DNA of 64,000 nt from Apostichopus japonicus. Its lineage: Eukaryota. The notes under the pieces were generated by a model. It worked only from the letters and a program-made list of their open reading frames with translations, was not told where the DNA came from and searched no databases. The translations under genes and the position numbers were made by a program. Positions 5,790-56,900 of this stretch are shown here, one piece after another (positions within the stretch are counted from its first letter, which is position 1; each line of letters begins with the position of its first letter). The DNA lies in NCBI RefSeq assembly GCF_037975245.1, contig NC_092575.1:8205331-8269330 (forward strand). The letters run 5' to 3'.

Positions 5790-7330
5790 ACACATTGGAT
5801 CAATGTCATATTGGACTGGTGATGTGTGGATGGTCCCTATTGTTTTTGTTCTCCATCACATGAATATTAATAAGTGGGCAGGGCTTAAAGTAAAATTCTT
5901 AAAATGTCAATATCTTCGCAACGGTATGTCCGATCTGCTTCATACTTGGTATGGTGATGTAAGTGGTTCATTGTCACATGACAATGGAATTTCATCTAAT
6001 TAATATTCATGAGTAGGTGGGGCTTAATCCTTAATTGCTAGAAATAGCTTGTAAACCTGAAATCTTAGAAATTAAATGTTGAATTACTGTCATTTTGAAC
6101 TGGTACATGCTCCATGATTAGTAGATGTTCCCTATTGTTTTTGTTGTTCATGACATGAATATTAATGAGTAGGCAGCAGTTAAAGTGAAATTCTTAAAAT
6201 GTCAATAACTTTGCAACGGTATAACCGATCATCTCCATACTTTGTTGATTGGTGGTGGATAATAATAGTTACATTTTCATATGAAAATAACATGTAACCT
6301 CATTAATATTCATGTGTTTGTTGGCCATATAGCATTTGTTGTACCTCATTCCTAAACTCCTGTCATTCGTCACGTTTGACATGTTTTCCTGGTTCCTGGG
6401 AGCTTGCTGATCTTATCTATATTTGTTTTGCTTTATAAAACCATGAAATTGGCTAGCCAGGCCATTAAAGGAGTAGTCCAGTGACAAATTACACTGGACT
6501 GAAAAAAGTAACCTTTGCAATTAAGTTGGCATATGTGTATGTTGTGATGAGTTGGCATGTTTGTATGTTTTGATCAAGTTTGCGTGTGGGTATGTGTATA
6601 TGTATGTTGCATAAATAGCTGGCTCAGACAATTAAAGGGATAGTCTATAGTGAAAATAGTAAATGAACTTAATAATCTGGTATTACTGTACATGTACCTA
6701 TAGAGTATAGGGAAATCTTATGTGAGTGGGGTAGATTAATGTGTTGGTAGTAAGGTGTGAAACTGGTAAAATCTGATGGGTGTCAGGTGGGGGGGGGGGT
6801 TGTCAGATGAGTAGGGTGATGTTGGGATCAGGGTTGTAGGATGGTAGGTGAGGCTGCAGGTGGTATGATGGTAAGGGTTCCGCTCTGGGTTGGGGATATG
6901 GGTTGTGTCGTATGATCCCCATGTGTTTGTCTGGAGAGGGGGTGTGGGGTGGTGAAATGCCTAGAGTCAACTATATCACTTTTTTCAACTTTATATGTAC
7001 ATCAATAAAGGCATTAATTTTTGGTTTTGTTTACGATAGCCAGGTAATCTACAGTTTAGCATGTTTGCAAGTGTATGTATAATCTTAAAAACAATATATT
7101 TAATTACCCTAAATGTATTGAATAACTTGTAGATATGCTACATTATCATTACATGGACCTCATTGTTTTTGTTGTCCAGTACATGAATATGTGGGTGGGG
7201 CTTGTAATCAAATTCTTAAAATGTCGATATTTTTTCAAATATATGTCTGATCACCTTCATACTTGGTAGGTTGGTACAGTAGTGCCACATGAAACTGAAA
7301 TTTCATTTATATTCATGAGTGCACTGACAA
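5790..7330. repeat. Dispersed repeat of about 200 bp in three direct copies (5790-6010, 6120-6310, 7150-7320)
   Basis: Shared blocks: ccctattgtttttgtt.tccatcacatgaatattaatgagt.ggcag..ttaaagt.aaattcttaaaatgtcaata.ctt.gcaacggtat..ccgatc..ct.catacttggt. The copies are separated by a G/T-rich low-complexity tract (6780-6960). Confidence 0.55.
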
Positions 7331-18254: not shown

Positions 18255-19290
18255 ACTTATTAAGAGAAGACGAATCACATCATTCCATGAAAACAAAAAC
18301 TGTTAAATATTTGACTGCATTGAAACACTATAGTGGAACTATGTGTTGTTTGTGGACCAAAGACAGGCAGTGTCCTTCAAAAGAAAAGCAGGACAACTTG
18401 ATCAGATAACTAAGATTTGATTGAAATATTGCTGATTGTTATCCACTCTTCACATATTTTGTGTACAGTTAACTTATCGATTGTGTTTATATCAGTTTTA
18501 ATTTTAGTTCACCTGTAACCCATAAATATTAAAACTATGATCTGTGAACTGCGGTTATTTTTCAGGGTATTGTTAGCACCCCAAAACATGATCACGATTC
18601 CACCACGCAATTACTTTATCTGTATCAGACTCTGAGATTTTCCCAGGACCCATTTCCTCTTTATCCAGGGGAGAATTTAAAGCAGGTATAAGAATTAACT
18701 TAGATTTGGTGGAATAAGTTTCTTGATTACCGTACTACATCTAGTTAAAGTCTGTAAAGTGGTTTTGTTCGTTTCACTAAATGTCTCTAATGGGTGTTAA
18801 CTGGGTATGTTGGAAGCTTTCATCTCCATAAAGCTTTAGCAATGTCTCTCAAAATTTCAACAAAACTGTATATAAGTTCATCACCCTTCTGGGCATTGCC
18901 TATATAGACTTGCCCTATTTAATGGCCAATTTTACTTTTTTGAAGCTTTTACTGTAAGCTTTACTACGACCAAAGCAATTTAACCTTCATTCACAGACTT
19001 TAATGAAGTTACGCAGTTGGTTATCATTTATTGCTGTAAATCTCTCATTCCGTAGGAAATAACTCTACTGAAAGTTGTGCCTGCCAACTCAGCACTGCGT
19101 CTGCGTGCTATTCTTGACTTTGAAGATGCGAAGAAGGTCCAGGGACTTATATTACACTCCCAGGAAGGAGGTCATTGTTGATATATATATATATATGCCA
19201 GAGGAACCCTGATCAAACCAAACCAGGCCATCAAACTTAGGGCCCGCAAAGAGACCAAGGGCTCCCGGTTCCGCCCACTGGTGCATGACA
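18255..19290 (+). pseudogene. Decayed partial paralog of MVP. It comprises the promoter-proximal 270-bp unit, the 3' end of intron 1 with exon 2 (internal ~100-bp deletion), and exon 3 (internal deletion replaced by (AT)n).
   Basis: 18255-18440 aligns to 28277-28440. 18445-18700 aligns to 30270-30620, with the acceptor and exon-2 ends conserved but the middle missing. 19030-19275 aligns to 30740-30975, with 19190-19200 (AT)n in place of about 60 nt of exon 3. The reading frame is destroyed. Confidence 0.75.
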
Positions 19291-34918: not shown

Positions 34919-35463
34919 GTTAGTTCTTGTAAAGGAAGCAATTAGTTAGGATGAAGTTTGATTCTTTGAAGTGATTGCAATCAATTTAATACTGTTGCAT
35001 GCTTACAAGTTTCTTTATTTCTTTTTAATTTTATTTATTTAGTCATTCCCAGTCAGTTACTCATCTGTGTCATGTTTAGCAGGTTAATGGTGATTTAGCT
35101 GTATGTAGTAGTTGTTATATCTACTAAAAACTATTTCATCTGTTAATTATTAGATGAAGATTTGACCACATAAGTCATGTTTGATCTTTATTCTTGTTAA
35201 TGGTGGTTACTTGTGAAGGTTCATAAGAAGTAAAATGGGTAACTATGTGGGCAGATTGTTATCAAGTTGCTGTGGTGAGTGATTTTGCTATACTTGTGCA
35301 CCCAATGCTTATTAAAGTTTGCAAAATCTCAAGAGAAATAATGATATAACCAGGAGAAAGTAGGAAGAAGTATTTATAGGGTAAGTTGATTGATGTTAAA
35401 GGTAGTTGGGACGGAGAGTGAAGTGAAAGTTGAATCAGAGTTGTTGATGTTTCATCTCTTCAG

Positions 35464-35699
35464 ATCCGAGCTGTGGCAGGCATCACCTACATGTTGAATC
35501 AAGACGAGGAGCTGTGGGCCAAAGAGCTCCCTCCAGCAGTGGAGAAACTCCTTCAGACCATGAGGGACCCTCTTGCAGATCGTAGTGACCGTAGTGGGAC
35601 CCCTGAGGTTAGAGTAAGGGAGAAGACCAGAGTTGTGACCTTCAGAGTGCCTCATAATGCAGCGGTCCAGATATACGATTACAAAGAGAAGAAAGCTAG
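35464..35699 (+). CDS. MVP: MVP coding exon 8 ([32 protein letters not shown]...[23 protein letters not shown] + 2 nt)
   Basis: Acceptor tctcttcag|at, donor gctag|gtgaat. Matches human [30 protein letters not shown]...[24 protein letters not shown]. Confidence 0.92.
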
Positions 35700-36305
35700 G
35701 TGAATATTTAATATCCCTTTAAGTATATGCAAATTATGTAAGTTTTAGGATAATATTGAATTCTATCTAGGCTCGACAATGAATTTTCAGGAAAATCAGT
35801 ACTTCTATCGTAGTGGAAAAGTTGCGGATGAAAGTTGATAGTGTTTGATTAAGAGCCACTGAAAGCTGATCTTGCAGCAAATGTTAGCATAGTCCACATT
35901 ATAAATATTTCCAAAGTTAATTCTTGAAAAGTTTTCATTCTTCTGGTTTGTGGTAGAAATTAAAGATGGTTTAGTTGAAGCTTTATCTCTTTGTAAGATA
36001 TTTATAGGAATACAGGTGATCAGTACTGCACCTAGATAAAGTAAAATAATCCAAAGCATTTTTTGGCAACACTCAACAGTGTGAACAGTCCTAAAGGTAT
36101 GGCAATAATGCAGAAGGTCAGAATGAAAGTACTATATAAACTATGAGGTTGCTAAAGGGCGGGGAAAAGACTGGTGACCAACAGTACTTTTCTCCATAAA
36201 ACAGTGTACTTCCACCAATATTTTGCATTCTTTGCTGCAACAGCTTCTCAGTTGATCTGCCCCCTCATGTTGTTACTGTTTTGTCAACATTTTTTTTTTT
36301 TTTAG

Positions 36306-36503
36306 AGTTGTCTTTGGTCCAGAGTTGGTGATGCTTGGACCAGATGAGCAATTCACCCAGCTGAGTCTTTCTGGGGGTAAACCCAAGAGACCAAATGTCA
36401 TCAAGTCACTGTGCCTTTTGCTAGGACCAGACTTTTGTACTGATATCATCACCATAGAAACAGCTGATCATGCAAGACTACAGCTGCAACTCTCATACAA
36501 CTG
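36306..36503 (+). CDS. MVP: MVP coding exon 9 ([66 protein letters not shown] + 2 nt)
   Basis: Acceptor (t)12ag|ag, donor caactg|gtaagt. Near-identical to human [29 protein letters not shown]...[32 protein letters not shown]. Confidence 0.93.
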
Positions 36504-37527
36504 GTAAGTATAATAAAGCACTTAACAAGGTAAATCAATGTCAATGATGTGTTGTCATAGGCACTAAAGTACATAGAGTTGTAACTAGTTTAAACTATCA
36601 TTGCACAGACATTTTGGGTTTTAAACAAGTTTGGACAATTTTATGTCCATCTGCTAATGATGTTTTAAACACTCAACATTGATCTAAATAGTGTTGATGA
36701 GATTACTGCCAGCAACTCGATGCATAATCCAGTTATTATGTGTACCTGTCAGAATAATCTTATAATCATATAACTACAAGGATAAATAGTGCATGTGGTT
36801 ATGCTTGGACATTGTCAATATCTAATATATTTTTTGATTGACTTCACTCTTGGCTGGAATGTTCTTGACAGAGAGGGGGAGGGAGTGAGGGGTGTCTCAC
36901 CCTCCCCAATAATTAGCTTGAAACTTCAATAGTTCGAAAATCGGTGGTCAAAACAATGACGGTTGGAAAAGTTTATCTATGCAACATCAATAATTTAAGC
37001 TGATCACACTCTTGACAAGATAATACTGAGTCGAATATCTAACTCTTTGTACAACCCATAGTAACGTTGAAAATACTTCAAACTAACTTTAAAATTGTCC
37101 GATTATGGCCAATTGGCATTCAATTTAGCATCTTAGTATTCCCAGTATAGCATATTTAAGGTACAAAGAATTGACAACCCACATGTGTTATGCTGCTGAA
37201 AATGTCAAACTTGTGGTATGGCAAAGTACGAATTGATGGCCAATTACAAATCCACCCAGTTGGAATATTAGGATACTACACCCCTCCACACCCCCCCCCC
37301 CCCACCCCCCTCAACCCAAGCACACAAGACCTGGGCCCTCTTTGATGCTGTTCATTGCATAAAGTGTTCATTCCTTTCTTACTGTGTACCCTTTAAATAA
37401 ATTGTTCAATATTAAAAATAGGTTTAGAAGAGAATTTTGAAATTAGGGAAGCATTACAAAACAAATTACTTTCCCAGCCAATGTGTTTGTTCACTTAAAT
37501 AGTTGCAAGCAAAATTGTATGATCATG

Positions 37528-37830
37528 GCTGTAGTAGTAGTAGTAGTAGTAGTAGTAATAGGCACAATGCTGGCCCTGGAAAACAGGTCAGTTAAATGCA
37601 AACACAGAACATGTCCCAGATACTGGCCCTGGAAAATAGGTCAGTTAAATGCAGTCACAGAACATGTCCCAGATACTGGCCCTGGAAAACAGGTCAGTTA
37701 AATGCAGTCACAGAACATGTCCCAGATACTGGCCCTGGAAAATAGGCCAGTTAAATGCAGTCACAGAACATGTCCCAGATACTGGCCCTGGAAAACAGGT
37801 CAGTTAAATGCAATCACAGAACATATGCCA
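37528..37830. repeat. (TAG)9 microsatellite followed by a 61-bp tandem repeat of about 4 units, in MVP intron 9
   Basis: gtagtagtagtagtagtagtagtagtaa, then ctggccctggaaaa(c/t)aggtcagttaaatgca.(a/t)cacagaacatgtcccagata repeated head to tail. Confidence 0.7.
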
Positions 37831-38059
37831 TGGGCTTCTAGACATGGTTCATAGCTTGAAGCATCTCTTCATGGAAGTGAGTGATTAAGGCTTCATTTTT
37901 TTACATCTATGGTTGTAGCATGGTATCATTGTATGGCTTTAGTGAAGTATTACTAACCCATGTGAAATGTAACCTTTGGAAATGAGTCAGAAGGTAATGG
38001 TCTTGGTGACTTCTGTGCATTGTTCAATTCTGGTTTCTTTTACGTTCATTAATTTTTAG

Positions 38060-38201
38060 GCATTTTGACATTAAGAAGAAGGATGATGAAGCAGGCACCA
38101 AACTCTTCAGTGTTCCTGATTTCATCGGTGATGCTTGTAAAGCCATCGCCTCTCGCATCAGAGGAGCTGTAGCTGGAGTTCAGTTTGATGACTTTCACAA
38201 G
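38060..38201 (+). CDS. MVP: MVP coding exon 10 ([48 protein letters not shown])
   Basis: Acceptor taatttttag|g, donor cacaag|gtttgt. Matches human [48 protein letters not shown]. Confidence 0.93.
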
Positions 38202-38830
38202 GTTTGTTCAATGTAGGATTCTGGGCAAGAAGGAATGCTGCATTCATACAAAGCAATCCTCAAGTTTTACAAAATAGTGGAAAAAGAAGACTCTAGGATT
38301 TCATAATGTTAATAATGAAGTTCAGCCAATAATATTTAATTTAACTTTAGTTTCATAATATTGAGAACTACAAGAAATTGAAAACTGTAATATGATGGCT
38401 AGATTTCCTCAGCACCGATCTTTACTTTAGATTTAGTTCATATACCAATATTGATGATTGAAAAGAAAATGTAGAATTCTTCAGTTTCTCATAGTTGGTA
38501 TATGGATTTAGTCTAAAGTAAAGATCTTTGCTACTTCAGCAAAATAGGTTAAATTTACAAGAGTCCTCCTTGATCATGAAATATATGACCACTGCAGTCA
38601 GTCCTAAGCAGCATGTAAGGATCATTAAGTATTGTCAACATCATCGTAGCAAACTAAGTAAGTCAATCTTACTTCGTCAGTGTCATAACTATTTCCTCAG
38701 TAGTAGTCATTCTTCATTGCTGCCCCCTTTTTTTATTTGTAAGCAACTTTGTTACCACCGTCACATCAGTCATAATATGATCTAAATTTTACCATCAACA
38801 ACATTACACACATATTCTCCCATTCTGTAG

Positions 38831-39042
38831 AATTCTGCCAAGATTATAAGGGCCTCTGTCTTTGGATTTGATGACAAGAAGAAGGTCCGGGAGAGTTTCT
38901 CATTCCCTCAGAACTTGCTGGTGATAACTAGCGTTGATATCCAGTCTGTTGAACCGGTGGACCAGAGGACCAGGGATTCTTTGATGAAATCTGTGCAGTT
39001 GGCCATTGAAATCACCACCAACTCTCAGGAAGCTGCTGCTAG
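38831..39042 (+). CDS. MVP: MVP coding exon 11 ([70 protein letters not shown] + 2 nt)
   Basis: Acceptor attctgtag|aa, donor gctag|gtgaga. Matches human NSARIIRTAVFGFE...[48 protein letters not shown]. Confidence 0.93.
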
Positions 39043-39350
39043 GTGAGAGGAAACACAGGATGGGAGGGTATGGGGTTGAAAGAGGAGGAGGTGAATGGGT
39101 TATAGCTTATCTCTGTTTCATTATCTCTATGTCATGTTGAATTCTTGTTACTATGTTTTAGACTGCATTCTGTGTGATGGTTTGTAATTCTTACAGGTGC
39201 TTTTATTTTGTGTAGCTGTTAAGTTGTGATTACATTGATAGGGCATTAACTACTCTCTGGAATGGTAGTAAATGAGTTTATCGTTTTCGTTTAAGAGATT
39301 TTCCTTACAAAACACATCTCAATTGCATTAATTTGATGTTGCTCTGACAG

Positions 39351-39594
39351 GCATGAAGCAGAACGCCTGGAACAAGAGGCCAAAGGTCGTCTGGAGCGTC
39401 AGAAGATTGTCGATGAGGCAGAAGCCGAGAAGGCTCGCAAGGAACTCCTGGAACTGCAGGCTTACAGTGCTGCTGTTGAGAGCACAGGTCAAGCCAAGGC
39501 TGAGGCCCAGTCTCGAGCAGAAGCCCAGAAAATTGACGGAGAGGCTGCCGTGGAGCAAGCTCGACTCAAGTCAGAGGCAGCAAAAATTGAAGCA
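39351..39594 (+). CDS. MVP: MVP coding exon 12 ([82 protein letters not shown])
   Basis: Acceptor gctctgacag|gc, donor gaagca|gtgagt. Matches human [66 protein letters not shown]. Confidence 0.92.
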
Positions 39595-40202
39595 GTGAGT
39601 TTATCTGTCATACTCAGAAGTGACTTCGCATCGACCTGTTATTAAGATGAAGTCCTTACAATGAATTATAACTGTTTATATTTAGCATGAACATTGCACA
39701 AAATATGTCAGTTTCTCACATTTCTATCAGCGCAGAGGATTAACAAATTTGTAATTTGTTTCAGAAGTGTCTTACCTCTCCAAACAGATCTCAGAAATTA
39801 GAGTAAGGCTACAGCTTTGGTAGTAGCTAACCTTCTTTTTGTTTAAACACATTATGCAAAGATATGAGGCAGGTCACCAAACATGGTTGAATAAGTATTC
39901 TAATATTTCATTGAGAGAAAATAATGAAAAAGGTATGTATCTGTTCAACCCAGATAAGAATTACGACGGAATATTGACAATTCTTAGAATTCAGTCTCCA
40001 TATCTTGAACCGTTTATGATTGAAATAATTCCATTAGGTTCATTTGTTCTGTCTTTTTAAGCTATACCAGCAGGTATAAATAGAAATTGCTTTGGATTGA
40101 GTGTTCTGGGATCAATGGGAAACAAACATGGTATTTCTCCAAAGTAGCTTAATATTACAAGGGTTCATACATTTTGAAAGGGTTCATTTTCTTTGACTTC
40201 AG

Positions 40203-40391
40203 GAGTCAGAGTTGGAACGGCTTACCAGAGCTAGAGAAGCTGAAATCAAATACATCAAGGATCAAAATGAGCTTGAAATAAGCAAGTCCAAGCAGCTGGC
40301 TGAAATTGAAACAGAGAAGTTTAAGAACACAGTGGCAGCAATTGGCTCGGATACCATCAGATCTATTGCAGTAGCTGGACCAGAGATGCAG
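40203..40391 (+). CDS. MVP: MVP coding exon 13 ([63 protein letters not shown])
   Basis: Acceptor ctttgacttcag|ga. The first donor is gatgcag|gtaaga at 40392. Matches human ...[37 protein letters not shown]. The donor is reiterated about 17 times in the downstream minisatellite. Confidence 0.88.
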
Positions 40392-41090
40392 GTAAGAGAC
40401 AAATGTGTGTTGGGTGGACCAGAGATGCAGGTAAGAGACAAATGTGTGTTGGGTGGACCAGAGATGCAGGTAAGAGACAAATGTGTGTTGGGTGGACCAG
40501 AGGGATTCAGGTAAGAGACAAATGTGTGTTGGGTGGACCAGAGATGCAGGTAAGAGACAAATGTGTGTTGGGTGGACCAGAGATGCAGGTAAGAGACAAA
40601 TGTGTGTTGGGTGGACTAGAGATGCAGGTAAGAGACAAATGTATGTTGGGTGGACCAGAGATGCAGGTAAGAGGCAAATGTGTGTTGGGTGGACCAGAGA
40701 TGCAGGTAAGAGACAAATGTGTGTTGGGTGGACCAGAGATGCAGGTAAGAGACAAATGTGTGTTGGGTGGACCAGAGGGATTCAGGTAAGAGACAAATGT
40801 GTGTTGGGTGGACCAGAGATGCAGGTAAGAGACAAATGTGTGTTGGGTGGACCAGAGATGCAGGTAAGAGACAAATGTGTGTTGGGTGGACTAGAGATGC
40901 AGGTAAGAGACAAATGTATGTTGGGTGGACCAGAGATGCAGGTAAGAGGCAAATGTGTGTTGGGTGGACCAGAGATGCAGGTAAGAGGCAAATGTGTGTT
41001 GGGTGGACCAGAGATGCAGGTAAGAGACAAATGTGTGTTGGGTGGACTAGAGATGCAGGTAAGAGGCAAATGTATGTTGGGTGTTTACAA
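40392..41090 (+). repeat. Minisatellite of about 17.7 units of 39/40 bp (gtaagagacaaatgtgtgttgggtggaccagagatgcag). Each unit duplicates the last 15 nt of MVP exon 13 plus the GTAAGA 5' splice site. It is organised into a roughly 275-bp higher-order repeat.
   Basis: Units 1 and 2 are exact 39-mers and are in frame. Variant units (ggaccagagggattcag 40-mers at 40502-40510 and 40777-40785; ggactagag; aaatgtatg; gtaagaggc) recur with a period of about 275 bp. The array occupies more than half of intron 13. Confidence 0.9.
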
Positions 41091-41670
41091 GTTTAAGGAT
41101 AAGTTGGTGTTGTGTGTAGATATGCAGATGAGATAGACAGGTAAACTTATGTGTGTTTATTGTACACGATACAACTTAAGGAAATGGTGGTACCAAATGG
41201 TGCTGTTTAGTAGAAAACAATTAACAAACATGGTGGCAGCAATAAGATCTGACACCTTCAGATGGTGGCAGCAAGTGGTGCTGACACCATCCAATTGATC
41301 ACAGTGGCAAGATTTGCAATTGTGAATAGGTTGCTTTTGTACTGCTCAAAGGTTGCAAATGCTAAAATGGGATACCTGAAACAAGATGGAAGTGTTCCTT
41401 GCTATTGTTTTGTAACTGTTTGTGTTTTATTGTATGTTGGTGATCGCTTGAAGATTGTTTGTGTTGTATAGGGAATGAATGATAAAGGTAACACTTCCTA
41501 ATGTCTTAGAAGGGAATGTTGACCTAACTGATGAGACCCTAACAATCAAATCACATGCAGGTAATGCTTCCATATCAAGACTGTCCATTAATGATTGGTT
41601 TGGTTTTTAGCATGAGTGTCAGCTTTGGTTCTGGTGAGTTCCTAACCTTAACTCGGTTTTTTTTTGTCAG

Positions 41671-41832
41671 GCTAAACTGCTTCAGTCACTTGGTATTCAG
41701 TCAACCCTGATTACTGATGGCACCAGTCCTATCAACTTGTTCAATACAGCTAATGGTTTGCTCGGGGCCTTGGAACCTCCGAAGAAACGATCTAAAGGTC
41801 ATAAAGACGATGACTCCAGCGATGATGAATAG
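41671..41832 (+). CDS. MVP: MVP terminal coding exon ([53 protein letters not shown])
   Basis: Acceptor cggttttttttttgtcag|gc. Matches human [35 protein letters not shown] stop at 41830-41832. A possible ATTAAA polyA signal lies near 42008. Confidence 0.92.
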
Positions 41833-43439
41833 GTTGGGTGTTTGGAGTAGTTTCTTTACATTCGTCTTTCGCTTAAATAGATAGTACAACATTTCTAGCA
41901 GTGTTAGCTATCAGGATATAATTTTGTTAAATGTCATAAGAAGATGTCATGCTAGAATATTCAGAAGTGGTTAATTCATTACTGCATTTAGACCTACTTC
42001 ATTATATTAAAAAACAGAAATCTTCTCATATTCTCTTTTGTTTTGGTGTCCTTGAAAAGGTAAGATTATTTTACAATTTAAAAGTATATTTAGTATGCAA
42101 AACCAGAATAATGTTCAAAGTATATCCCAGAAGGGAAAACATTCATTTAGAGGTTGCTCCTTAACAAGTTTGCATGAACACAAGTTTGCATGAACCATAG
42201 TTAAACTCATCAACAATATATTAAACTAGTACCTTATAGGTCAGAAATGCAATAATGTACAATATAAAGTGGACTAGCAGATTCAGGGCATGGTACATCG
42301 GTCATATTCAAGTGTAACAAGAAGGGATGCACCAATGGACGGTCATAGAAAATTAGATAATTCAAAGCATGTTTTTGCAAATGAAAATCTTGGGGCATTT
42401 CTTTCAAATTTATTTGTATTTCTAATAACAGTAAAGTATGTAAAAGTCTATGGTAATGGTAGTTTGTAGATTGCATCTGTTAGTAAGAATGTAACATTGG
42501 AGTCTCAGTTTGGCTTGGGGAGAGGATAAATGCAGGTGGATGAATTAGGTGAGGGAGTGGTAGCTTATCGAAGGGCAGGTTTCTTGTTAAATCCACCATG
42601 TCATGTGTTCCCATAAACTGTCTTGTGTTCTCATAAACTGTCTTGTGTTCCCATAAACTGTCTTGTGTCCCCATAAACTGTCATACATTTGAGACATGTA
42701 TGGTAATCTTTTAGCCAAGAATCATGTAGCTCATGTAATCAAAGCAACCATTTTAAAACATGGTCTCCATTAACTGTTAACTCTAGTATTCAGTATATCA
42801 AGGTAGCTGTGACTTATTTTACAGCTTTGTTATAATGAATGCTGTTCAAGTAAGCTATTAATGTTCATATACACAGAGTGTTTGTGTTATTAATTCAGTA
42901 TAGGCCAATATAGGATGTCTGCATTACACAGAAGTCAAAAGGCAGCCTTTGAGCAATTAAAGTGTCTTACTACAGGCTAGAGGCCTGTCTTGCTACTCTT
43001 ACATATACTTTAATCTATACAATGTTAATACTGTCAACCTTGTATTATATGCAAACCATCATATTTTAATTCATAAAACTTTACAGAGTTGAAGGTTGGC
43101 CAACGAATGATTTTGCTTTTCTATTAATCAATGAACAAACAAGTTTTCAGGACTATTCAATCATGTAGAGGTATTAAATCAAATGAATGATTGTAGGTCT
43201 TCACCAAGTTCAATAATCCTAAGGAAAAGGGAGAGACCTTGCATCTATACAATTTATAGTCTATTTTCTTCATAGAAGTTAAGAAGTCTCTATGTTAGTT
43301 GATGCTAGTTATTGCATTAAAATTCTTGTAGTATACTAATGTTTGTTGTCTGTTTTTAATCTACTTTGTCTACCTCTTTAGGTTCTTTCAGTTGGAAATT
43401 AGAAAAGATAAGTTATTGTATTCAGGTTACAAGCGCTTG

Positions 43440-43560
43440 AATTCTCTAGTCACTTAGATTACTATGTACAGCACATACTACATACAGTTTACTACATTCA
43501 GCACATACTACATACAGATTACTACATACAGCACATACTACATACAGATTACTACATACA
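43440..43560. repeat. Tandem repeat of about 30 bp, 3-4 units (tactacatacagcacatactacatacagat)
   Basis: Direct consecutive units in the MVP 3' flank. Confidence 0.6.
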
Positions 43561-43679
43561 GCATTTATCAGAGGTAACCAGAGTGAGGACCCTCCAATGG
43601 TTACTTGCCTTACAAGAAATTCTAATAGCGACCCCAATTTTCACCTTTATCATCTTGGCAAACCTCCAGTGGTGGATGT

Positions 43680-43810
43680 TATGGCCTGGGAAAGGGGTAT
43701 ACAGACAGGAGTCCCCCAACCTTTGGCCAGGGGAAGGGGTATGCAGACAGGAAGTACCCCCAACCTTTGGCCTGGGGAAGGGGTATGCAGACAGGAAGTA
43801 CCCCCAAGCT
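43680..43810. repeat. Tandem repeat of about 39-40 bp, 3 units (ggggaaggggtatgcagacaggaagtacccccaacctttggcc)
   Basis: Three near-identical consecutive units. Confidence 0.6.
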
Positions 43811-46800
43811 TTGTGTTTTTTCATCCACACTTCGGGTACATTCAGGGTACTATTTATGCACTGAAGCTAACTGTACAAGAGTGCTGGTATTTTACGGTCC
43901 TTTAGTTGCTCTGACTCCCACACCAAGAAAAAAACAACCACCCACCCAACACAACCACCCTTTATATTCACATCCCCATGGTTCACAAGTTGCCGTATTG
44001 TTTGATCGATTAGTTACCACTAATTGAAATTATTAGTTTGTTCCATGGGGTAATATTAAACAGAAGATTACCACTTCGTTTCAATCTTTATAAACAAAAT
44101 AACAGTAAAAAAAAAAACAAAGGCATTTTTATGTTTTATCATTATTGACAGTATAGTGATAAATTCTATTCCAATCAAAAAGCAATAATTTTTGCAAGCA
44201 TTTTCAAAGAAATAAAAAGAAAGGAACTTGCCTTTTTTCTTCAATATAGTTTTTATAAAGGCTGGATTTCTTGCAAAGAGACAATAAACTTTGGAAGTTG
44301 TTTCACTGAATACAAGAAACAGAATTCATGTAAAAATTTGAGAGAAAAAATGAATATTAAATTTGCTTCGTATCTAAATTCATTTTTGTATCAAACAATT
44401 TCAAAGGAAGTAGAACACACTTTAACTTCTGAGCATTTTTGGGTTCAAACACTTGCAAGAAACTGACCACAAAAACTTGAATTTGGTTGATATCAATCAA
44501 ATGTTAACAGAGAAGACCAATGCTTGTAATTTGCACTGAGGCTTGCAAATTGTTGGCTTATGTATCTGGCAAATAAAATGGGGCAGTATTCTTAAATCGC
44601 ACTTTACCATACCTAAATGAAAGTCGTATGACATGCTAACTTTTAACATAAAATCATAATTAAAAATGAATGTGCACCTCTGTTCAGATAACATCACTTG
44701 TAAAGATTTGCTGTATCAAGAGTCACATAGGAAATCAAAACTTTTTTTTTACAATTTTAATGTCATAGTAACACAAACATGTAAATATCAGTAAACACCA
44801 TAATTTGCAGGATAGAGCTGATACCCAAGAATCTGTGACGAGACATTACACAACAAGCTTATCCATTAAGATGAACAAAATTTTACATTTCACGCAACAG
44901 AACAAGCTACAAAGATGTATTATATATTCCCTGGGAGTGGTTTGCTATCCAGAGCACATACATGTTCCCACTGTAAACAAATTAAATCAGAACGGAAGCA
45001 GAACACCACTAAATTGTTGGCCAACAGCTTCAAAGCCAAACCTAGCATATTAACATCTATACATACAAACCACAGTTTAGGTATCTTTCTGTTGGAAAAA
45101 TACTTTGCTTAAGTATTTCAATTCTCATATCTGGGGATTCATTTTCCTTGTTTTTCCCTGTTTTTCTTAAAAACAATGCATACTCAAATTACAACTGAGT
45201 TCTCATGTTTATCAGTTAAGAGATATTCACATTACAAGGATATTCAGGGCATGCTGTTTGACTAAGCTACTTTCAATAGTTTGTTCTTTTACAATATTCT
45301 TTTAATAGCAATTTATAGGTGCATTTAGAGAGCTGCTCAATCTGAATACTGCATAAACTGAATTACACGAGCAGAAGAACCACAATTCACATGAGGAAAG
45401 CAGGTATCAAATTGCCAAAAAACTTGATCAAAACATATTCTCCAATGTAACTGTGCATTGCAACCCATCATACAGCTACTGGCCTTCTACATAGAGTCTG
45501 TGTATTACTATGATTAACACAATATTTCAGATTCTCTTCATTGATGGTATGCCTATCCAGTGACATCATATAACAACAAATCATAATTGATATCCATCCT
45601 TCTGCTGAGATCATTTTGTGTACCACCATCAGACCAATATCAATGGCCTCCCTGGCTACAATTGTTAGCCATTGTGATGTAACACTATCTTTCAAAATGC
45701 AACAGTTTGTGGTTGCACCATTGCAACATACTGAAGACTGGGGCATGAAGGATTGTTATAATGCTGTTTATGTTTATTACAGAACACATATTGGGGTTAT
45801 TAAAGAAATAGTAAGTTTCAATACATTGATCTACAACAGACAGGGTTATGCATAGGCTGAATGTAACACCTGCTCATCCAACAACAAATTACCCTGCTTG
45901 TAAAAAAAAAAAAATTAAGAAAAATAACAAAGGCAATGATTCAAACCAAATTACCACAAAACTAAAACAGAAAACTACTTGAAATAAGATGGGAAACGGG
46001 TCTACTTAATAGATATCAAATTGTTATTGCCAGCACCTGCTATGCTTGAAGATGGGATATCAACAACCTTCCAAATGTTAATACAAAGCTTGCTAAAAGA
46101 AGTGAAAGTAACGCTGTATATATTGCCTGCTGCCGGTAGAGATAATATTGGCAGAGGTAGGTAATTTACCATCAATAACTCATCACATAGAACTGTAATA
46201 AACTAACTATGGGATTGCCTTGAACCCAACGTTTGTACTGTATGGTACAAGATAAGACCATTAAATGTGCTTGTGATATCAAACTAGCACTCTTCACTAT
46301 GGTATTCCTTTAAAAGCAATCATGCCAGGAATTCAATTCACCTCATCACACCTAAGACATTTATTTTTAGTTAAAACTTCTCACAGGACTGATTTTAAGA
46401 AGTGAAGGCACCATTTCATCTCAATTATCTCCCAAAACTGACAAAAATAATCTTACCATCGCATCAACTGTCTGAAATCATAATCACTCTACGAAAAAAG
46501 GAAGCTTTAGAATGAGTAGAATAAGTCAAATTTACTTTAAAATGTTTCCTAAAAAAACACCACAAACTATTTTCATCGCAACAAGGACTTGAAATGTTTT
46601 ATTTAGGTTGCATTTCTGGAAAGCTTGAGAGGTTTGTCACTCACATAAAAGCATATACCAGTACATTGAATTTAAAATGATGCAATCTGCAAAATCTAAT
46701 ATTTACTGCCATTCTGGATTTTGTCTGCTTAATATAGCGTCGAATGTAGGTCTAACAGTTCAGCTGACGTATCTATACAGCTTGGAAACATACTGAATTG

Positions 46801-48767: not shown

Positions 48768-49506
48768 CTGAAAGACAAATGGCAAAAAATCTGATATGTA
48801 GCAAAACATTCAAATCTGAAAAAATAGAAGTGATATTGTACGCATTATGCAGAACTTTAAAGAACTTCTATGACGTTTACAACAGGGTTGTACAGGAAAT
48901 AAAAGGTGGTGAAATAATGGGCAGGACTTAACGAGAAACAACATCCATGTAATAATAGACATACGTGGGAATGTTGGGAAATAATGTAAAATAATGTTTA
49001 CTTTAGTTCTCCAATCTAGTATAAACCTTCTTTGCATTCCAGCATGATACTGTAGGTACAGTAGGCAGACGTTCTACACTGCAGCTACATGAAAGCTGTG
49101 CCGCAAACATCAATTCACTTTAAAAGTTCTGAAATTTTAAACAATTTCACTAAGTCACATTTCACCAGTCCATCTCCTGCTTTCCAGAAAAAAGTATAAC
49201 ATACCATCGACACTGGAAGTTTAATTTAGTTTTTGACATATAAAATGTTCCTTTCAATCTAAGCTGTCACAATTGAATTTAACAATTAACCTTCCTGTCA
49301 CTCCAACAATGCAGTGGTAGTGATGGAGTTTAGTAGTTCAATATTAAAGCCATTGAACATTTTGGAGGGTGGAATTACAAAAAGAATATTTTAAGGACAT
49401 ACAAATGACAAGGTGGTAATGTACTTGTTTTTGCAGCAAGGAGCTAAGGGAAAACAAGGAAAGGGTGGTTTACCTATCCTTTAAGGGATTAAGGAAGCAC
49501 TCTTAC

Positions 49507-51537
49507 CTTTGAGTAGCATCTCTGTTACTTCACTGAGGTTAAACATCTTTGTTTTCAAGCTAGTACTGCTTATATCAAGTTTTAACTTCTTACTTGACAA
49601 CAGCTTTATCTCCACAGTATTATCTGCAACTAAATCTCTTTCTGTCATGTCTTGTCCTTGCTTTGAATTGGCAACATGTCCCTGGTCTAATGCATGATTC
49701 CCGCTTTTGTTTGCTGCCTGTATCGTCTGTGCTTCGTCTGTTTCCGGATAATCGTTGATCAATGCACCTTGAACCACAACAGCAGTTGGCAGCTTAGTTT
49801 CTTTGCTTCTAGTGAATGACTCAGGTCGTCCGTATTCATCTAAGTCCAATATGCCATCCTCACTCACAATTAAGCTCCCAAACCAAATTGGGTTACTAAG
49901 AAGAACACCAGAATTTGAAGGCAGTGATTGGCCACTGGTAGTACCCGCTTCAAGTTTTTCTCTCTCTGTGTGAGCCACTTTGACTTTGCAGACTGTCTCA
50001 ACATCAAGAGTGGTACCTGCCTTTTGATTATGCAGAGATAAATTCAAGTTGTAACTTTCAGCTTTTGTTTGGCCAAACTCTATAGTTCCTATTTTACCAT
50101 CCTTTCCACATACATCCTGTGAACTAGACTTAACAGTATCTTTACCAGATAAATTGAATCCTTCTATTGTACTCTTCTCATTCTTCTGCACAGTCCTTAT
50201 ACTCTGGTCATCCCTTGTTGATGCTGTAGTTGTTGTTGTTGTATCATGAGTGGTACCCAGACTTTGCTTCACCCGTCCAGCATATGAGATTTTAGTGCAT
50301 TCAAGGTTTAGGTATTGCACAGATTTTGCGTGATGCTCTGAAGATCCTTGCCTCTTATTAGTACTGGAAGCTACATAAGAGGTCAAATTTGGAAAATTAA
50401 GATCAAACTTTCGAGTGGGACTGACTTCTAAATTCATAGCTGCAGATATGGAACTAGACGGGGGGACGTTGGTGGTCAATTCCTTTGATTCTTGTTGGCT
50501 AACAGTTCTATCAACTGTGTCACTTTTAAGATCACCGATGGAATTGATTTTTGGTTTGCTATTGCTTTGACTACTCAATGGTGCTGTAATTCCCTCAAGA
50601 TTATTAGACGGCTCCTTCTCTTCTTCTTCCTTCATTAATTGCACGTGGCCAGTCCCTTGGATGCTAGCTTTTAACCGGCTGGCGTATGACAACCCTCCTT
50701 GTTTCTTTTGTTCACAATTGTTCTCATCGCTCTCCAGAGAATCTCTTCTAGAGGATGCTGTTGTGGTGGTTGTTGTAGTACTGACTTGTTCTTCTGCCTC
50801 ATTCGTTCCCAGTCTCCTCCGACTGTTTGTATATTTACACATTTCTTTAGGAAGGCTACTAGACTTTCTCAAGTCCCAGGCAGAGTCTTTGCTTCGAGCA
50901 AAGTTAGAGTTAGGTGAATCATCCATATAAAAGTTTTTGGAAAAAGATCGCGGAAAACCAAAGTGACTAGCACCTTTCTCTTTGCGTCTGGATTTTCGAT
51001 ATTTGACAATGTTAAAGCCCCCGTGTTCTTCATCATTTTCGCCAGGGTCTGACATAGCGGCTCTACAGTCTGCTTCGCTTTCATCCTTGCCATAGTTGGT
51101 TGCATCATCTATAGCTCTATCTATAGCTCTCCGACGCAGTGATGCAAACACATCTTCTTCTAGCTCCTCCTCCTGCTGCTGCTCTTCATTTTCTTCATCT
51201 TTTGTGAGCTGCCTCAATCCTCCTATTTCATTTTCAGGAGCTGACCATTTCCTTCCTTCTGAAGATGTTTCCTCGTTTCCTTTTTTCTTTCTTGCTACAG
51301 GTTTGTTATTCTTAACAGGTTCAACTGCTTTGGTTCTATTACCTTTATTATCTTTTGAGTGTTTTGCTTTTTGCCCTGGGAAGACTTTGCCATCATTTTC
51401 ACCAGAGAGATTTTCTCGCTCAGAGCTGGACTCTGCTGATGTCTTTCTCTTGGTATTGGTGTCTGCTGATGAGGGTGCAGTCAGATCATTAGGAGATCTG
51501 GCTTCTTCTCCTTCAGTGGTGCTTTCAGTGCCATTGT
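49507..51537 (-). CDS. Large internal coding exon, about 2.03 kb, of a Ser/Thr/Glu/Lys-rich low-complexity (likely intrinsically disordered) protein
   Basis: A 693-codon open frame on the minus strand. Acceptor cctttttttccccatcttag|ac (+51538-51556). The consensus donor caaag|gtaaga (+49501-49506) leaves phase 1. Composition is heavily biased (poly-T, acidic and basic runs). No homolog recognised. Confidence 0.6.
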
Positions 51538-52919
51538 CTAAGATGGGGAAAAAAAGGTTCATACATCAATTTATAGTGCCACTAAAATACCATCTCAAGA
51601 TGACCACAAAAAGTCCACATAATGAAGAAATCTTTGCTGAAAACTACTGTTCTTTCATGTTAAGGCCAGCCTAACAACTGAAAACACTTTTGGCAATGTT
51701 GATGCTGAAGTGACTTTTGCAAAGTGACTTGCAATATCTATCATGGGTACAGTGAATAATTATCCAGTATCATATAGCAAAATGCTTATCAACAAAACAG
51801 GGTCAAATCAGGGAGTTGTTACATAACAACTCCCTGGTCAAATAGCAAGAAGAACATCATGCATAAATGTGTGAACTAGTGTAACCTTTATTAACCAAAC
51901 TTGAGATATTGCTGCTCATAACAATGCCCTCTTGCACATCATGGAAGCTAATACGCAACTTCCATACCATTATTTCCTAAGAGGAAGGTTTTCAAGAGGT
52001 TTTAGTTGAGCTACGCTTTGAACAGAAGTGACCCATGGTCACTTATCACACTTTCACATTACTTCAAACATGTACAGTAACCTGTTCCAAGCTTGCCCAA
52101 CATCCAGTAAGAAACAAGAATGGCAATTGGATTAATAGTAATGCCTTGCCAAATTTTTAATGAGAACATTCAACAGTGACACGGCACACAGGATTTTAAG
52201 TGTTGATCATCACAAGATTTGCAATGTCCTAGCAATAACACGGACATAACTATCAAGTTCATTCATGCTTTACATAAGACATGTGTGTTTCCAAGATTTG
52301 CAGATTTTGACATCTGTTTACCTTAAATGACCTTTGACCCTCACAGCAAGTGATAGGAAACTTGTACTCAGGAAGTTAATTCAGAGTTAAATATCAGTTT
52401 AACAAGGTTTAGAGAGTCTGATCTATTTTGACCTCAAATGACCTTTGACCTGCAATATCAACAAGGTTCGTAATCTCACTACTGTCGACAAGGAATCAAA
52501 ACACAAGCTGCAACTGATAGAATGCATCCACTACATTGGAATATACTCCAAATGCATCCATTGAGAAACAGACATTTGCTTGTGAGCAGACAAACAATCT
52601 TGATCAATTTCTGCTATCGATGGGTAATACTAGAACTGGCTATCATACCTAGGACAAGTGTGACTCTTCTCGTAGCCAACCCTTGAAAGTGAAGATTACA
52701 AATAGGGTGCAAAAACTGCCCAAGAGATACAGTACTTATTAGACTAAAAACATGCTTCAGTACTTATATTCTCTTTTACCTTACCCAAGTGTGTTTGTTT
52801 GTTGAGACAGGTAGGAAAGGAATAAAGCAAAAGTAACAAAATGGAAGATGAAATTGATTAAAAATAAGTCCCTTCTAAGCAGGAGTGGCAATAAGACATC
52901 ATAAATGCTGGCGGCATAC

Positions 52920-53925
52920 CTTGTTTAGTTTTTTTCTTCTTTTTTCTCTTCTTCTTTCTCGTACCATCACCAACACTGGAGTCATCCCTTGTCACTTTAT
53001 TTGAAGATGTCTCATGCAAGCTGCGGCAGGAACCATAGTTTGTTTGGAAACCATTATCAAAATGAAAAGATGGGCCTGTCGGAGACACTGCTGGACTGCT
53101 ATGAGCATACACATCCTCTAGCTCACGTTCTTTCTGTTGTGCTCCATGCCTCTTCAATGGCGATTTATTCCCCCTATCAGTTCTGAGCTGACCTAAGATA
53201 GGTGTGGCAGCATTGACCTCAAATTCTGTAACCTGGCTAGAATTGATGAGTTCAGGAGCAGGGCAGTTTTTGACGTCGGTACTTTTGGGTTTAAGTATAA
53301 GTGATGCAGACTTCTTCAATAGAATTTCAGGATGAATTGGACCAACATCTTCTGTACTCACTTTTGTTTCTGAATTATGTTTATTTGCTTTCTCTCTAAG
53401 CATATTAGTTTTCCCTTTCATTACATTGTTTGTTGTTTCCTTAGTTTTTGTCAGAGGACCAAACTGTATTCCATCATCAACCTCTTGTTGACCCTTTTGG
53501 CCAGCAACTCCACTGGCCTTACTCTCAGACATGGTGCTATCCGGTTTAGGTGCGTCTTCATCCACAATATATCTTTTCTGTGATTCAGAAAATTGACCTT
53601 TTGGCACATTGTTAGTTATGGTGTTTACTGCACCTAGGTCTGTTTCATGAGCCTGCGAAGCACTGTCATCTTTTTCATCTGTTTTCAACGTCATTGCTGG
53701 TGTAATTTGAGTGGACCCCAAATGTGGCGACAAGTTGTGGTTTCTATCTTTTGATCCAAACCCTTTTTCGTTTTTTTCTGGTGCGTCAAACGTACCATAA
53801 ACTCTGACATTATGAAAGACGTCCGATATGAGGTTTTGCCCAGCCTGTAGGTCAGCTCTTAGAGTTTCTAGGTCCACAGTAGATCTTTCTGAAAGTTCAC
53901 GTGCTCTTTCTTTGATTTCATCCAC
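52920..53925 (-). CDS. Upstream coding exon, about 1.0 kb, of the same minus-strand gene (VDEIKERARELSERSTVDLETLRADLQAGQN... then a disordered S/T/K-rich region ending GTRKKKRKKKKKTKQ)
   Basis: Acceptor tctcttattttctctatcaaag|gtg (+53926-53947), with phase-0 entry. Donor caag|gtatgc (+52914-52919) leaves phase 1, and the exon at 49507-51537 starts with the 2 nt completing that codon (g+ac = Asp). The poly-Lys tract is NLS-like. Confidence 0.55.
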
Positions 53926-56900
53926 CTTTGATAGAGAAAATAAGAGAAACATTTTTTGCAGGTAAACTCCAATGTGCTGGCTACAATGCTATTTTAATGA
54001 AAGTAGTGGCCTTACCTGAATTTGAGGTAAAGTTATTTCATTGATACATATAGTTATCTATCACATAATTAAGGAATTAATAATAATAATAATAATAAAT
54101 TATAACTAATAAATAATTATCAAATCTATTTGGTCTTCATTTCGAACTTCCAAAAAAGAAGTGTAAAGACCTTCCAAAGACAATCAAAACAACTGTAAAA
54201 ATGTTTCCTAGGAGTCTAGAACAGCAGACTAGCAACACTTAGAATATTTTTGCAATAATCTGAATATGATATTTTCACACCATTTTTACCAAATGTTGAA
54301 GAAACACTTTCAAGCAAATTGCATACATGTAGATTACACCAAACTGAGTTTCACAAAACTTCAAAATAATTTTGATTCACAAAGATCAAAATTTCAAAAC
54401 CATATATCTCAAATTATGTTCAGTAGAAAAAATGTCAAAGGGCTAATGATGCATTGCAAATTTCTCATTGTCTCTTCATGACATGTTTTACCAGCAAAGC
54501 AGGACACTAGTCTTAATACCACTCCATGGTTCTTGTACTGACAAAGGTGAATCCACTTGCAAAGTGTGAAGTTCTTCCAAGATTTGCTTTTTAAATTAGG
54601 CTTCAAGAGTTCACAATATTTCAGATTTTAACCTCTGTTGGCCTAAAATGAACTCTGACCATGTATTCACTAGATTCCTCTAAACACTATGGTGGATATA
54701 CATAAAGTTCAAACACCAGGTACTTTTCCTGAGTTTATTCAGGTTTCACAGATAAGGCATCACACATACAAACACATGTTGTGTTAAGCCCCACCACTCA
54801 TTAATATTCATGATGGAACCAAAAACAATAGGGCACATCTTCACATCATGGGGCATCTACCTACCAAGTATGACATTGTTTCAACTTGCGTTTGTTGAGA
54901 TATATTGTTTACAAGCTAGCCATCACATACACACTTTCATACACACATGCCAGCACAAATTCAAAGATTACCAATGTCAAAGGTAGCTTTCAATCCTAAA
55001 GTTGCCTAATTCTGTGTTTGTTTACACCTTCTACCCAATAGAAATCAGCCCAATTATGCAAAAATAAGAACAGTTCATATGTTGGCCATTGGGCTGTAAT
55101 GGGATTGTCATTTGAGCAACTTAGAGGCATGTTGCTGTTCAAAACATGGAATTCAGAAAGGTAGTTTTTTTAATTGTAACAGCATCCAAGTACTTTTCTG
55201 GTAAAGTTTCCTTATTTTCATGTCATAGTACTTGAAGGAAAAGTACAGTAGTGACAAAAAATTGTTTTCCTCATTTATAACATGACTGTTCCCAGACATG
55301 ACTTTTAAACTAGATTATTTCCCAAACGAAGTAAGGTTTTTCTTATCTGTTTGGGGTGTTGTTCTTCACAAAGATCTGTCATATAAGCTACAGATGATGG
55401 TTGGGTTTGCGTCTTCTTCAATTGTTTTCTTAGTCAGTCACCCCATACCGATTGAAATTCCAGAGAGTGTGATACAGTAAGTTTTATCCTCCTTGTTTTA
55501 TAGGAGATTAGTGTATGTCAGATGATTGGCTAGTTCATCCCATTTCTCAAAATTTGAGGTATTTATTGGCTACATGCCAGTGCAAAATTAATGTCGCTGT
55601 GGTATTGATTCAATGAAATTGCAAGTGGGAATTTGATTTTTAGCCAGTAAATTTTTATGCACTGGTTAGTTTTAGCAATTGGCTAAACTTGTGAAATTTT
55701 AGACATACGAAAATGAATTGAACTTTTCAACTCTCTAATCCTTTGTGTTACCCATCCCCCTTCTGTAGCCTATGCTAGGCCTACTAAACTACTGTAGACT
55801 AGGCCTAGTGTAGGTCAAGTCATGTCTAGCCTACAGTAAGGCAAGTGCACAGTACTGGGAATGGCTATTTTTTTCTGTAAAAATCTCCTTGGATTTGTGA
55901 TCCAACTCCATTCAAAAATGAATGGTTTTGGAAGATAATGATGGCAGAAGCTGCAAAACACAATTCACAAAAATTTGTCAATGTCACATGTCAAACAAGA
56001 AACTGATACACCATTTCTTGTGATTAAAATGGCACTTCCAGTTCAAACACAAGTAGTCAATAACTGACAAAATGACTGAACGTCGGTGAAATAACATACT
56101 GTTGGTGACTCAAGTTGTTGACTCACTCAATTCACATCAGTTTGTGAATTGCAACTTGACCTTTTAAAGTATTCATGACGTTCAGATGAATGGTATGACA
56201 AAGCTGAACATCTGCCTGTTGTTTGAACTAGGCGAATTATGCAAGTAACAATATTGCTTCAAAAGACCCTGGCACAATTTACACTTGCAGTAAACAATGC
56301 ATGATAGTGTGTATTAGAGGCTCTACAAGGACCTGCTGTGCCAGTTCTTTCTTAATCTTGTGTATTATTGTTATTAGGTTTTTCAACATAGCATTATCCA
56401 CGGTTAACGTGTACCACTTTGACTCCTTCACTTGAAGTCTGAGGTTTCTGATTGCAAACAAAAAATAAGCTAACAGAAAAGTTAGCAGTGGCTTAACAAT
56501 GGCTGCAGAAAATGGATGATTGTACCTACAGTATATCTATAGCCTTTCAGTGTCTTTTATTGATTATCATTAAAAACCTGCTGATATAACTGTGTAAATA
56601 CATGTATGATTTCCTACAGAAGCTTCACATACAGTATATTCACTGTATTGCACTTTGCATTATTGTTTCTTTTCTTTTGTTTTAGCTAATTTCTATTTGA
56701 CATTCCTGAACAGACTTTTACAAACATAAACCAAGTTATAGAACAGTTCTATTAAATAAAGTTTCCATTATAATTAATCACTGGTGGTTGGAATGGTTGA
56801 CAAAGTTAGAGATATTTGAAGTCATTTCTTCACTTTGATATGTAAATTGTTTTTCTGCCACGGAATAATTTATCCAGTATTGCATAGCAAAATTTGATGC

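Follow-up and report, generated by a model that had tools for sequence, protein, structure and literature searches.

A 39-nt minisatellite reiterating the exon 13 splice donor of the major vault protein gene of Apostichopus japonicus: a probably silent intronic array

When a splice donor is followed by a long series of copies of itself, is the first copy still the one that is used, and is the array silent or does it change the product of the gene? This question is raised by the major vault protein (MVP) gene of the sea cucumber Apostichopus japonicus, which lies in the 64,000-nucleotide stretch of contig NC_092575.1 that was analysed as a whole (the window). A preliminary description of this DNA, made from the sequence alone, had reported at 40392-41090 a minisatellite that repeats the end of exon 13 and its 5' splice site about 17 times. 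TRF analysis places a 39-nt tandem array at essentially that location, 40376-41083 on the + strand, with 18.1 copies, 95% matches and a score of 1296.

The host gene was identified by tblastn with human MVP and a spliced model, which gave 14 coding exons between nucleotides 28927 and 41832 of the + strand and an intact ORF of 866 amino acids, 100% identical to the RefSeq isoform X3 (XP_071850071.1). The top full-length protein match was [quoted passage not shown], with 99% identity. The product is a full-length MVP with vault repeats, shoulder, cap-helix and cap-ring, and the domains of the representative of its protein cluster are PF01505, PF17794, PF17795, PF17796 and PF11978. Exon 13 (40203-40391, +) consists of 189 nt coding for E751 to Q813, which cover the closing part of the cap-helix and 16 residues at the start of the cap-ring. 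The exon has a phase-0 end; the earlier assignment of the array to MVP and to the donor of its 13th coding exon was therefore correct. Intron 13 (40392-41670, +) is 1279 nt long, 54% of which is array; its unique remainder (41084-41670) ends in the acceptor tttttttttgtcag. Exon 14 (41671-41832, +), the last coding exon, encodes the rest of the cap-ring and an acidic tail ending in SSDDE, followed by a TAG stop codon.

The C-terminal 177 residues align without gaps to residues 675-851 of rat and human MVP (E about 1e-66), and Q813|A814 corresponds to residues 818|819 of those proteins. The MVP cap-helix comprises residues 647-802 and is followed by the cap-ring, the sequence of which is highly conserved (PMC3595041). 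Judging by this alignment the exon 13/14 junction sits inside the cap-ring, 16 residues past the end of the cap-helix, and not just before a cap-helix tail encoded by exon 14, where the preliminary description had located a possible insertion. A literature search found no relevant report of a cloned A. japonicus MVP cDNA.

With every GTAAGAG taken as a cutting point, the array contains 18 CAG|GTAAGAG sites, at 40392, 40431, 40470, 40511 and so on to 41059, which delimit 17 full units and a 25-nt partial unit that merges into unique sequence at GGGTG|TTTACAAG; the estimate of about 17 reiterations was accurate. The repeat unit is composed of 16 exonic and 23 intronic nucleotides. The exonic part of the first one (40376-40391, +), where the array starts according to TRF, corresponds to the final 16 nt of exon 13, TGGACCAGAGATGCAG, which encode GPEMQ; a share of 15 nt had been claimed previously. 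The authentic donor of intron 13, GTAAGA, occupies nucleotides 40392-40397 (+). Counted from the donors, every unit opens with GT and closes with AG. The locus can thus be described as an intronic head-to-tail array of units within the range of about 10 to 100 bp, with a first monomer that spans the exon-intron boundary and with pseudo-donors that match the authentic donor over the splice consensus (18/18 sites read CAG|GTAAGAG). When the whole window was searched with the 39-mer allowing up to 3 mismatches, all 15 matches fell inside the array (0.00 expected from shuffles) and the rest of the window included none.

Five types of units were distinguished. Type A is the consensus, and type B, 41 nt long, ends in GGGATTCAG. 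The other three are point variants: CCA is changed to CTA in type C, GTG to ATG in type D, and GAC to GGC in type E, the units of which have a G at position -32. Units 1 and 2 (40392-40469, +) are exact 39-nt copies, as the preliminary description had it, but the variant units 3 (40470-40510, +) and 10 (40745-40785, +) are 41-nt B units, not 40 nt as claimed for the third unit. Unit 3 breaks the frame, and reading through it gives GPEGFR and then a TAA stop (40512-40514, +), which overlaps pseudo-donor 4. A look-up of the ORF that reads on from exon 13 found no record of it. The order of the unit types is AABAACD in block 1 (units 1-7, 40392-40666, +), EABAACD in block 2 (units 8-14, 40667-40941, +), and EEC plus the partial unit in a third, incomplete block (units 15-17, 40942-41083, +). 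TRF detected the corresponding 7-unit period of 275 nt (2.6 copies, 98% matches), and blocks 1 and 2 differ at only 1 of 275 positions. The higher-order periodicity proposed before is therefore real, and variant units recur in the same order in blocks 1 and 2; the third block is out of strict register with them.

Conservation of the exon end indicates which part of the array came first. GPEMQ at the end of exon 13 is conserved across animals. A related holothurian (L005), assembled from a public sequencing run, provided an intronless contig with the whole ORF and 95% amino-acid identity, in which the last 21 nt of exon 13 are identical and are joined straight to exon 14. Genomic contigs from three more distant animals (L001, L002 and L003) have an intron at the same position and in the same phase, about 100-230 nt long and free of repeats; GPEMQ and its codons are kept in all three, with nearly the same nucleotides, and the exon-ending nucleotides match in L003. 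Since the exon end is conserved in L005 and L003 and the introns found elsewhere are repeat-free, the exon end must be considered ancestral and the intronic copies derived from it. On this comparison of loci the array is lineage-specific. An exact 40-mer across the unit junction had 0 matches in metagenome contigs.

The array probably arose when a 39-bp segment, with 16 nt from the end of exon 13 and 23 nt from the start of intron 13, was duplicated in tandem, and it later grew as 7-unit (275-bp) blocks were copied through unequal exchange or gene conversion. The preliminary description had proposed replication slippage seeded on the exon/intron junction followed by unequal exchange of multi-unit blocks. 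Origin at the junction is supported by the conservation of the exon end in L005, and growth in 7-unit blocks by the near-identity of blocks 1 and 2; the block structure itself is observed, and slippage and exchange are the mechanisms that we infer from it. Derivation from a dispersed repeat or transposon was rejected, as the search of the window found the unit at no other site, and the 16 nt with which it opens are conserved coding sequence.

Copy number was compared between two assemblies, the older of which carries indel errors. Contig MRZV01002734.1 of the 2017 assembly GCA_002754855.1 is colinear with nucleotides 35150-44763 of the window at 90-98% identity. Its array begins at the same point and shares the 3' boundary, but includes 9.1 copies versus 18.1, lacks B units, and has a different set of variants with units of 37 and 40 nt. 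A second array in the gene, a 53-nt repeat in intron 9, also differs between the two assemblies (4.8 versus 6.0 copies). These data suggest that the array probably behaves as a VNTR in A. japonicus, so that the copy-number polymorphism anticipated earlier is likely; length variation is rated as no more than probable because of the indel errors in the 2017 assembly, in which an extra A in exon 13 truncates the gene model PIK33107.1, and the shorter array could be in part a collapsed assembly. The opposite possibility, that the array in the window, or its length and block structure, was mis-assembled from a shorter repeat, seems very improbable. The two assemblies do disagree on copy number and tandem repeats are prone to expansion or collapse, but both assemblies, which are independent, contain the array between shared 5' and 3' boundaries, its blocks in the window are clean and consistent, with 1 difference in 275 positions, and the discrepancy in the 53-nt array fits polymorphism as well as it fits error.

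The strength of the donors was estimated by U1 pairing. All 18 sites can form 8 contiguous pairs with the 5' end of U1 (-3 to +5) and a duplex of -11.0 kcal/mol, a value that ties with the best donors of the MVP gene, those of exons 2 and 9. The sequences around the sites are less uniform. Upstream, donor 1 is identical to donors 2 (40431) and 3 (40470) over 16 nt; downstream, donor 2 stays identical to donor 1 for 72 nt and donor 3 for 33 nt. The preliminary statement that at least 39 nt of context to either side fail to distinguish these three donors was consequently too strong. Twelve of the 18 donors have the full 16-nt upstream identity to the end of exon 13, the most downstream of them being donor 17; the identity is only 10 nt for donor 18 and only 3 nt for donors 4 and 11.

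The predicted products differ according to the donor. Donor 1 gives the canonical 866-amino-acid protein, and from donors 2 and 3 an in-frame gain of 13 and 26 residues, respectively, would result, as had been deduced before along with the read-through of unit 3. Use of donor 4 would lead to a frameshift and a stop in exon 14. With donors 5-18 the predicted reading frame meets the TAA at 40512-40514, located 35-544 nt before the last junction, and from donor 6 on this stop is at least 74 nt upstream of it. A stop codon more than 50-55 nt upstream of a junction marks a transcript for nonsense-mediated decay (NMD), and by this rule transcripts from donors 6-18 should be NMD targets. The junction with exon 14 would read GTGTTGGGTGGACCAGAGATGCAG|GCTAAACTG when a pseudo-donor is used and GCAGTAGCTGGACCAGAGATGCAG|GCTAAACTG when donor 1 is used; as signatures, GCAGTAGCTGGACCAGAGATGCAG joined to GCTAAACTGCTTCAG identifies donor 1 and GTTGGGTGGACCAGAGATGCAG joined to GCTAAACTGCTTCAG any pseudo-donor of type A, D or E.

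Two other properties of the array were considered and discarded. Masking of the pseudo-donors by RNA structure finds no support in the predicted fold of nucleotides 40340-40630, which is not better than that of shuffled sequences (z = -0.39). With respect to recursive splicing, AG|GTAAGA is present in every unit, but the polypyrimidine tract that precedes the AG|GTAAGT motif of recursive sites is missing: the 20 nt upstream of the AGs of the units are 35% pyrimidine with pyrimidine runs of 2-3; at the 13 real acceptors of the gene the pyrimidine share is 55-85% and the runs measure 4-14.

Our analysis favors, as the probable explanation, a silent non-coding intronic minisatellite, with donor 1 at 40392 normally used and canonical MVP made. 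By natural precedents donor 1 is expected to dominate, with a likelihood that we put as high or slightly higher. As a side effect, the array has left the real donor, which is near-consensus, with 17 perfect copies further downstream, and these pseudo-donors would remain silent or nearly so, as they do in the human genes arranged in this way; any use of donor 2 or 3 would add its 13 or 26 residues inside the cap-ring. Some considerations speak against applying the donor-1 rule here. The 18 sites are all as strong as the strongest donors of MVP; in vitro, the intron-proximal of two strong sites is preferred (PMC3413131); in F7, pseudo-sites mutated to the perfect consensus competed with the upstream site (PMC1557585); and the precedents are all mammalian while the host of this array is an echinoderm.

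The MVP protein cluster includes, besides X3 (866 amino acids) and a 254-amino-acid fragment, two longer RefSeq isoforms, X1 (XP_071850069.1; 1035 amino acids, or 866 plus 13x13) and X2 (XP_071850070.1; 1022 amino acids, or 866 plus 12x13), which read 13 and 12 units, respectively, as coding. The preliminary description mentioned neither these predicted isoforms, with 12 or 13 units read as protein, nor a known class to which the array belongs. Enumeration of models reproduced X1 and X2 exactly from the window only when the final donor was pseudo-donor 17 (41020-41025, +) and the B units were removed. The removed "introns" are of 41 nt (unit 3) and 80 nt in X1 and are two 80-nt blocks in X2. 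Their acceptors have the same poor composition as all the unit ends (35% pyrimidine, runs of 2-3, versus 55-85% and 4-14 at the 13 real acceptors), and the shortest authentic intron in the 14-exon model is 170 nt.

The array does not have the properties of a translated tandem repeat, in which the frame is kept and the repeat is conserved as protein. It is considered non-coding because units of 41 nt, two among the 17 full ones, introduce a stop, the three point variants (types C, D and E) each alter an amino acid when unit sequences are compared with their translations, and orthologs are devoid of the insert. None of the orthologs inspected has an insert at the exon 13/14 junction, and the other two holothurian MVPs recovered from public sequencing runs, L005 and P0122 (the latter as protein only), are canonical. 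X1 and X2 are thus most likely annotation artefacts. Reads of the canonical junction with a short left overhang would fit a 41020 to 41671 junction equally well, and unspliced RNA from alleles lacking B units, such as that of the 2017 assembly, would align with gaps of 41 or 80 nt; such gaps resemble GT-AG introns because each unit begins with GT and ends with AG. On the other hand, X1 and X2 may rest on real intron evidence.

If the two isoforms were real, 12-13 copies of a cysteine-containing 13-residue peptide would be inserted in the cap-ring by means of pseudo-donor 17 and 41- or 80-nt micro-introns, and vault caps would vary between individuals according to the VNTR allele. We regard this as very unlikely. 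The existence of both records, their exact reproduction from the window and the in vitro preference for intron-proximal sites, which would favor a late donor (PMC3413131), speak for it; the micro-introns, however, lack pyrimidine tracts at their acceptors and are far below the shortest real intron in length, B units are absent from the other allele, in which units of 37 and 40 nt occur, the point variants all change the amino acid, orthologs have no insert, and donor 17 is exactly the donor that ambiguous short-overhang reads would predict. The same in vitro preference (PMC3413131), together with 18 sites of equal U1 strength and the predicted positions of the stop codons, would also be consistent with a dosage effect, in which a meaningful share of transcripts uses pseudo-donors 5-18, meets the TAA at 40512 and, from donor 6 on, undergoes NMD, so that the length of the array sets the MVP output. 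An association of VNTR length with enzyme activity has been indicated for CBS (by the title of Lievers 2001, cited in PMC1557585). Against this effect, which appears improbable if slightly less so than the translation of the array, the downstream-most sites are unused in every natural precedent as these are summarized in PMC1557585, and the intactness and strong conservation of MVP make it unlikely that losing much of its product would be tolerated.

The constitutive use of donors 2 and 3 at a low steady level, generating minor isoforms with 13 or 26 additional residues, is the alternative with the best standing; it is compatible with a predominance of donor 1 and, though unlikely, deserves consideration. 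Both donors match donor 1 over the 9-nt consensus, the 16 nt upstream and the 72 or 33 nt downstream, both preserve the frame, and two of the five human cases use exactly the first two pseudo-sites, according to the work cited in PMC1557585. In F7, the case nearest in unit length (37 bp), identical pseudo-sites are never used, nor are they in LMNB2 and PDGFA, which have longer units; in addition, the database cluster, with its 866-, 1022- and 1035-amino-acid forms and the 254-amino-acid fragment, includes no form with 13 or 26 extra residues, and the cap-ring where they would be accommodated is highly conserved (PMC3595041). We retain the silent array with normal use of donor 1 as the preferred explanation.

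Knowledge of vaults or of splicing is unchanged by this array. Its chief scientific value lies elsewhere: a conserved gene with a single product, in a non-mammal, carries 18 identical near-consensus 5' splice sites at intervals of 39-41 nt, a natural construct with which the rule established with human F7, that the most upstream donor wins, could be tested outside mammals and for strong sites. The array is also a warning for annotation, as length polymorphism and reads with short overhangs can be converted by spliced aligners into introns that look canonical, an effect that probably explains the 1022- and 1035-amino-acid RefSeq isoforms of MVP.

The arrangement belongs to a class that is already known from F7, IFI6, CBS, LMNB2 and PDGFA, and the sea cucumber MVP is an added case. 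In F7 a 37-bp unit is present in 5-9 polymorphic repeats and only the authentic donor is used; in minigenes the pseudo-sites can function but are passed over in favor of the site furthest upstream, and only those with a perfect consensus competed (Borensztajn et al. 2006, PMC1557585). The MVP array resembles that of F7 in its first monomer spanning the exon-intron boundary, in its identical pseudo-donors and in the length of its unit (39 versus 37 bp). It differs in that 16 exonic nucleotides are shared instead of 4, in having 18 donors as compared to 5-9 repeats, and in donor strength: F7 has the weak donor TGG|gtgggt, with a consensus value of 74, whereas that of MVP is the near-consensus CAG|GTAAGA, which is the regime in which the F7 mutants competed. 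Furthermore, splicing was tested for F7, while the MVP array is known from sequence.

IFI6 (6-16) has 25 pseudo-sites at exon 2/intron 2, of which the first two are used in addition to the authentic donor (Turri et al. 1995, as cited in PMC1557585 and PMC4526556). Like MVP it has many reiterated donors, and its first two pseudo-sites give longer in-frame isoforms, the result that the preliminary description had foreseen for donors 2 and 3; unlike MVP, for which alternative forms are predicted only and the third unit breaks the frame, it has three mRNA species that have been demonstrated. The CBS array likewise spans an exon/intron border, that of exon 13 and intron 13, with a 31-bp unit in 15-20 polymorphic repeats and use of the authentic donor and two pseudo-sites (Yang 2000 and Lievers 2001, as cited in PMC1557585); its unit shifts the frame, whereas the 39-nt units of MVP hold it until the 41-nt variant is reached. 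In LMNB2 and PDGFA, the exon/intron junctions of which are reiterated in intronic repeats of 100 and 81 bp, respectively, use of the authentic donor only has been described (de Stanchina 1997 and Bonthron 1999, as cited in PMC1557585), and this is the behavior predicted for MVP, although the units of both are longer. In vitro, a pair of strong consensus 5' splice sites leads almost wholly to splicing at the intron-proximal (downstream) site (PMC3413131). With its 18 equally strong sites, the MVP array falls between the rule defined by F7 and this regime of strong sites in vitro.

Tandem repeats are abundant in the window, in which TRF returned 36 rows corresponding, by our own count, to about 23 distinct arrays per 64 kb. 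Within the gene for the major vault protein (MVP) they are found in introns 5, 9 and 13, and tandem array sequence is also present immediately 3' of the gene (positions 42599-43813, TRF). The intron 9 array is a 53-nt minisatellite identified by TRF as 4.8 copies at 37570-37824, and the same repeat is present as 6.0 copies in the 2017 A. japonicus assembly (nucleotides 2536-2870 of locus L004, on contig MRZV01002734.1). It is a second MVP array, in addition to the 39-nt array that begins in the end of exon 13, with a length that is unequal in the two assemblies. Because the genome is so rich in tandem repeats, it is not very improbable that an array should start inside the end of an exon by chance.

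The 39-nt array also generates long mechanical ORFs on both strands and in several frames between nucleotides 40212 and 41136. These include a 217-amino acid ORF on the plus strand (40483-41136) and ORFs of 72 to 95 amino acids on the minus strand. None of these ORFs is a gene; all are artefacts of the repeat, which gene callers of the type designed for prokaryotes would nevertheless call. The behavior of the word-indexed protein search depended on the query: the 1022-amino acid A. japonicus MVP was recovered when the full-length sequence was used, and it was missed when the query was a 210-amino acid fragment or the repeat region. All matches obtained with the 210-amino acid fragment were shorter than 370 amino acids.

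Exon 13 in the 2017 assembly reads GAGAAAGTTTAAG (approximately nucleotides 5450-5470 of L004) while the window reads GAGAAGTTTAAG. The one additional A in L004 shifts the reading frame of this exon, which accounts for the end of gene model PIK33107.1 at ...ETEKV. The extra A is probably a sequencing error.

About 10 kb 5' of MVP, on the plus strand, there is a partial and degraded copy of MVP exons 2 and 3 (18564-19259), first seen by tblastn with human MVP. It shows 56-89% identity to these exons at the protein level and includes an in-frame stop as well as internal deletions. This copy is probably an MVP pseudogene fragment that originated by local duplication. On the 3' side of MVP, the minus strand includes two open frames of 693 (49481-51562) and 364 (52858-53952) amino acids, both enriched in Ser, Thr, Glu and Lys, that look like large exons of one further gene. 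In L001, an animal contig of metagenome origin that bears an MVP ortholog, the next gene 3' of the ortholog codes for an INTS2 homolog (PF14750, nucleotides 4935-6918).
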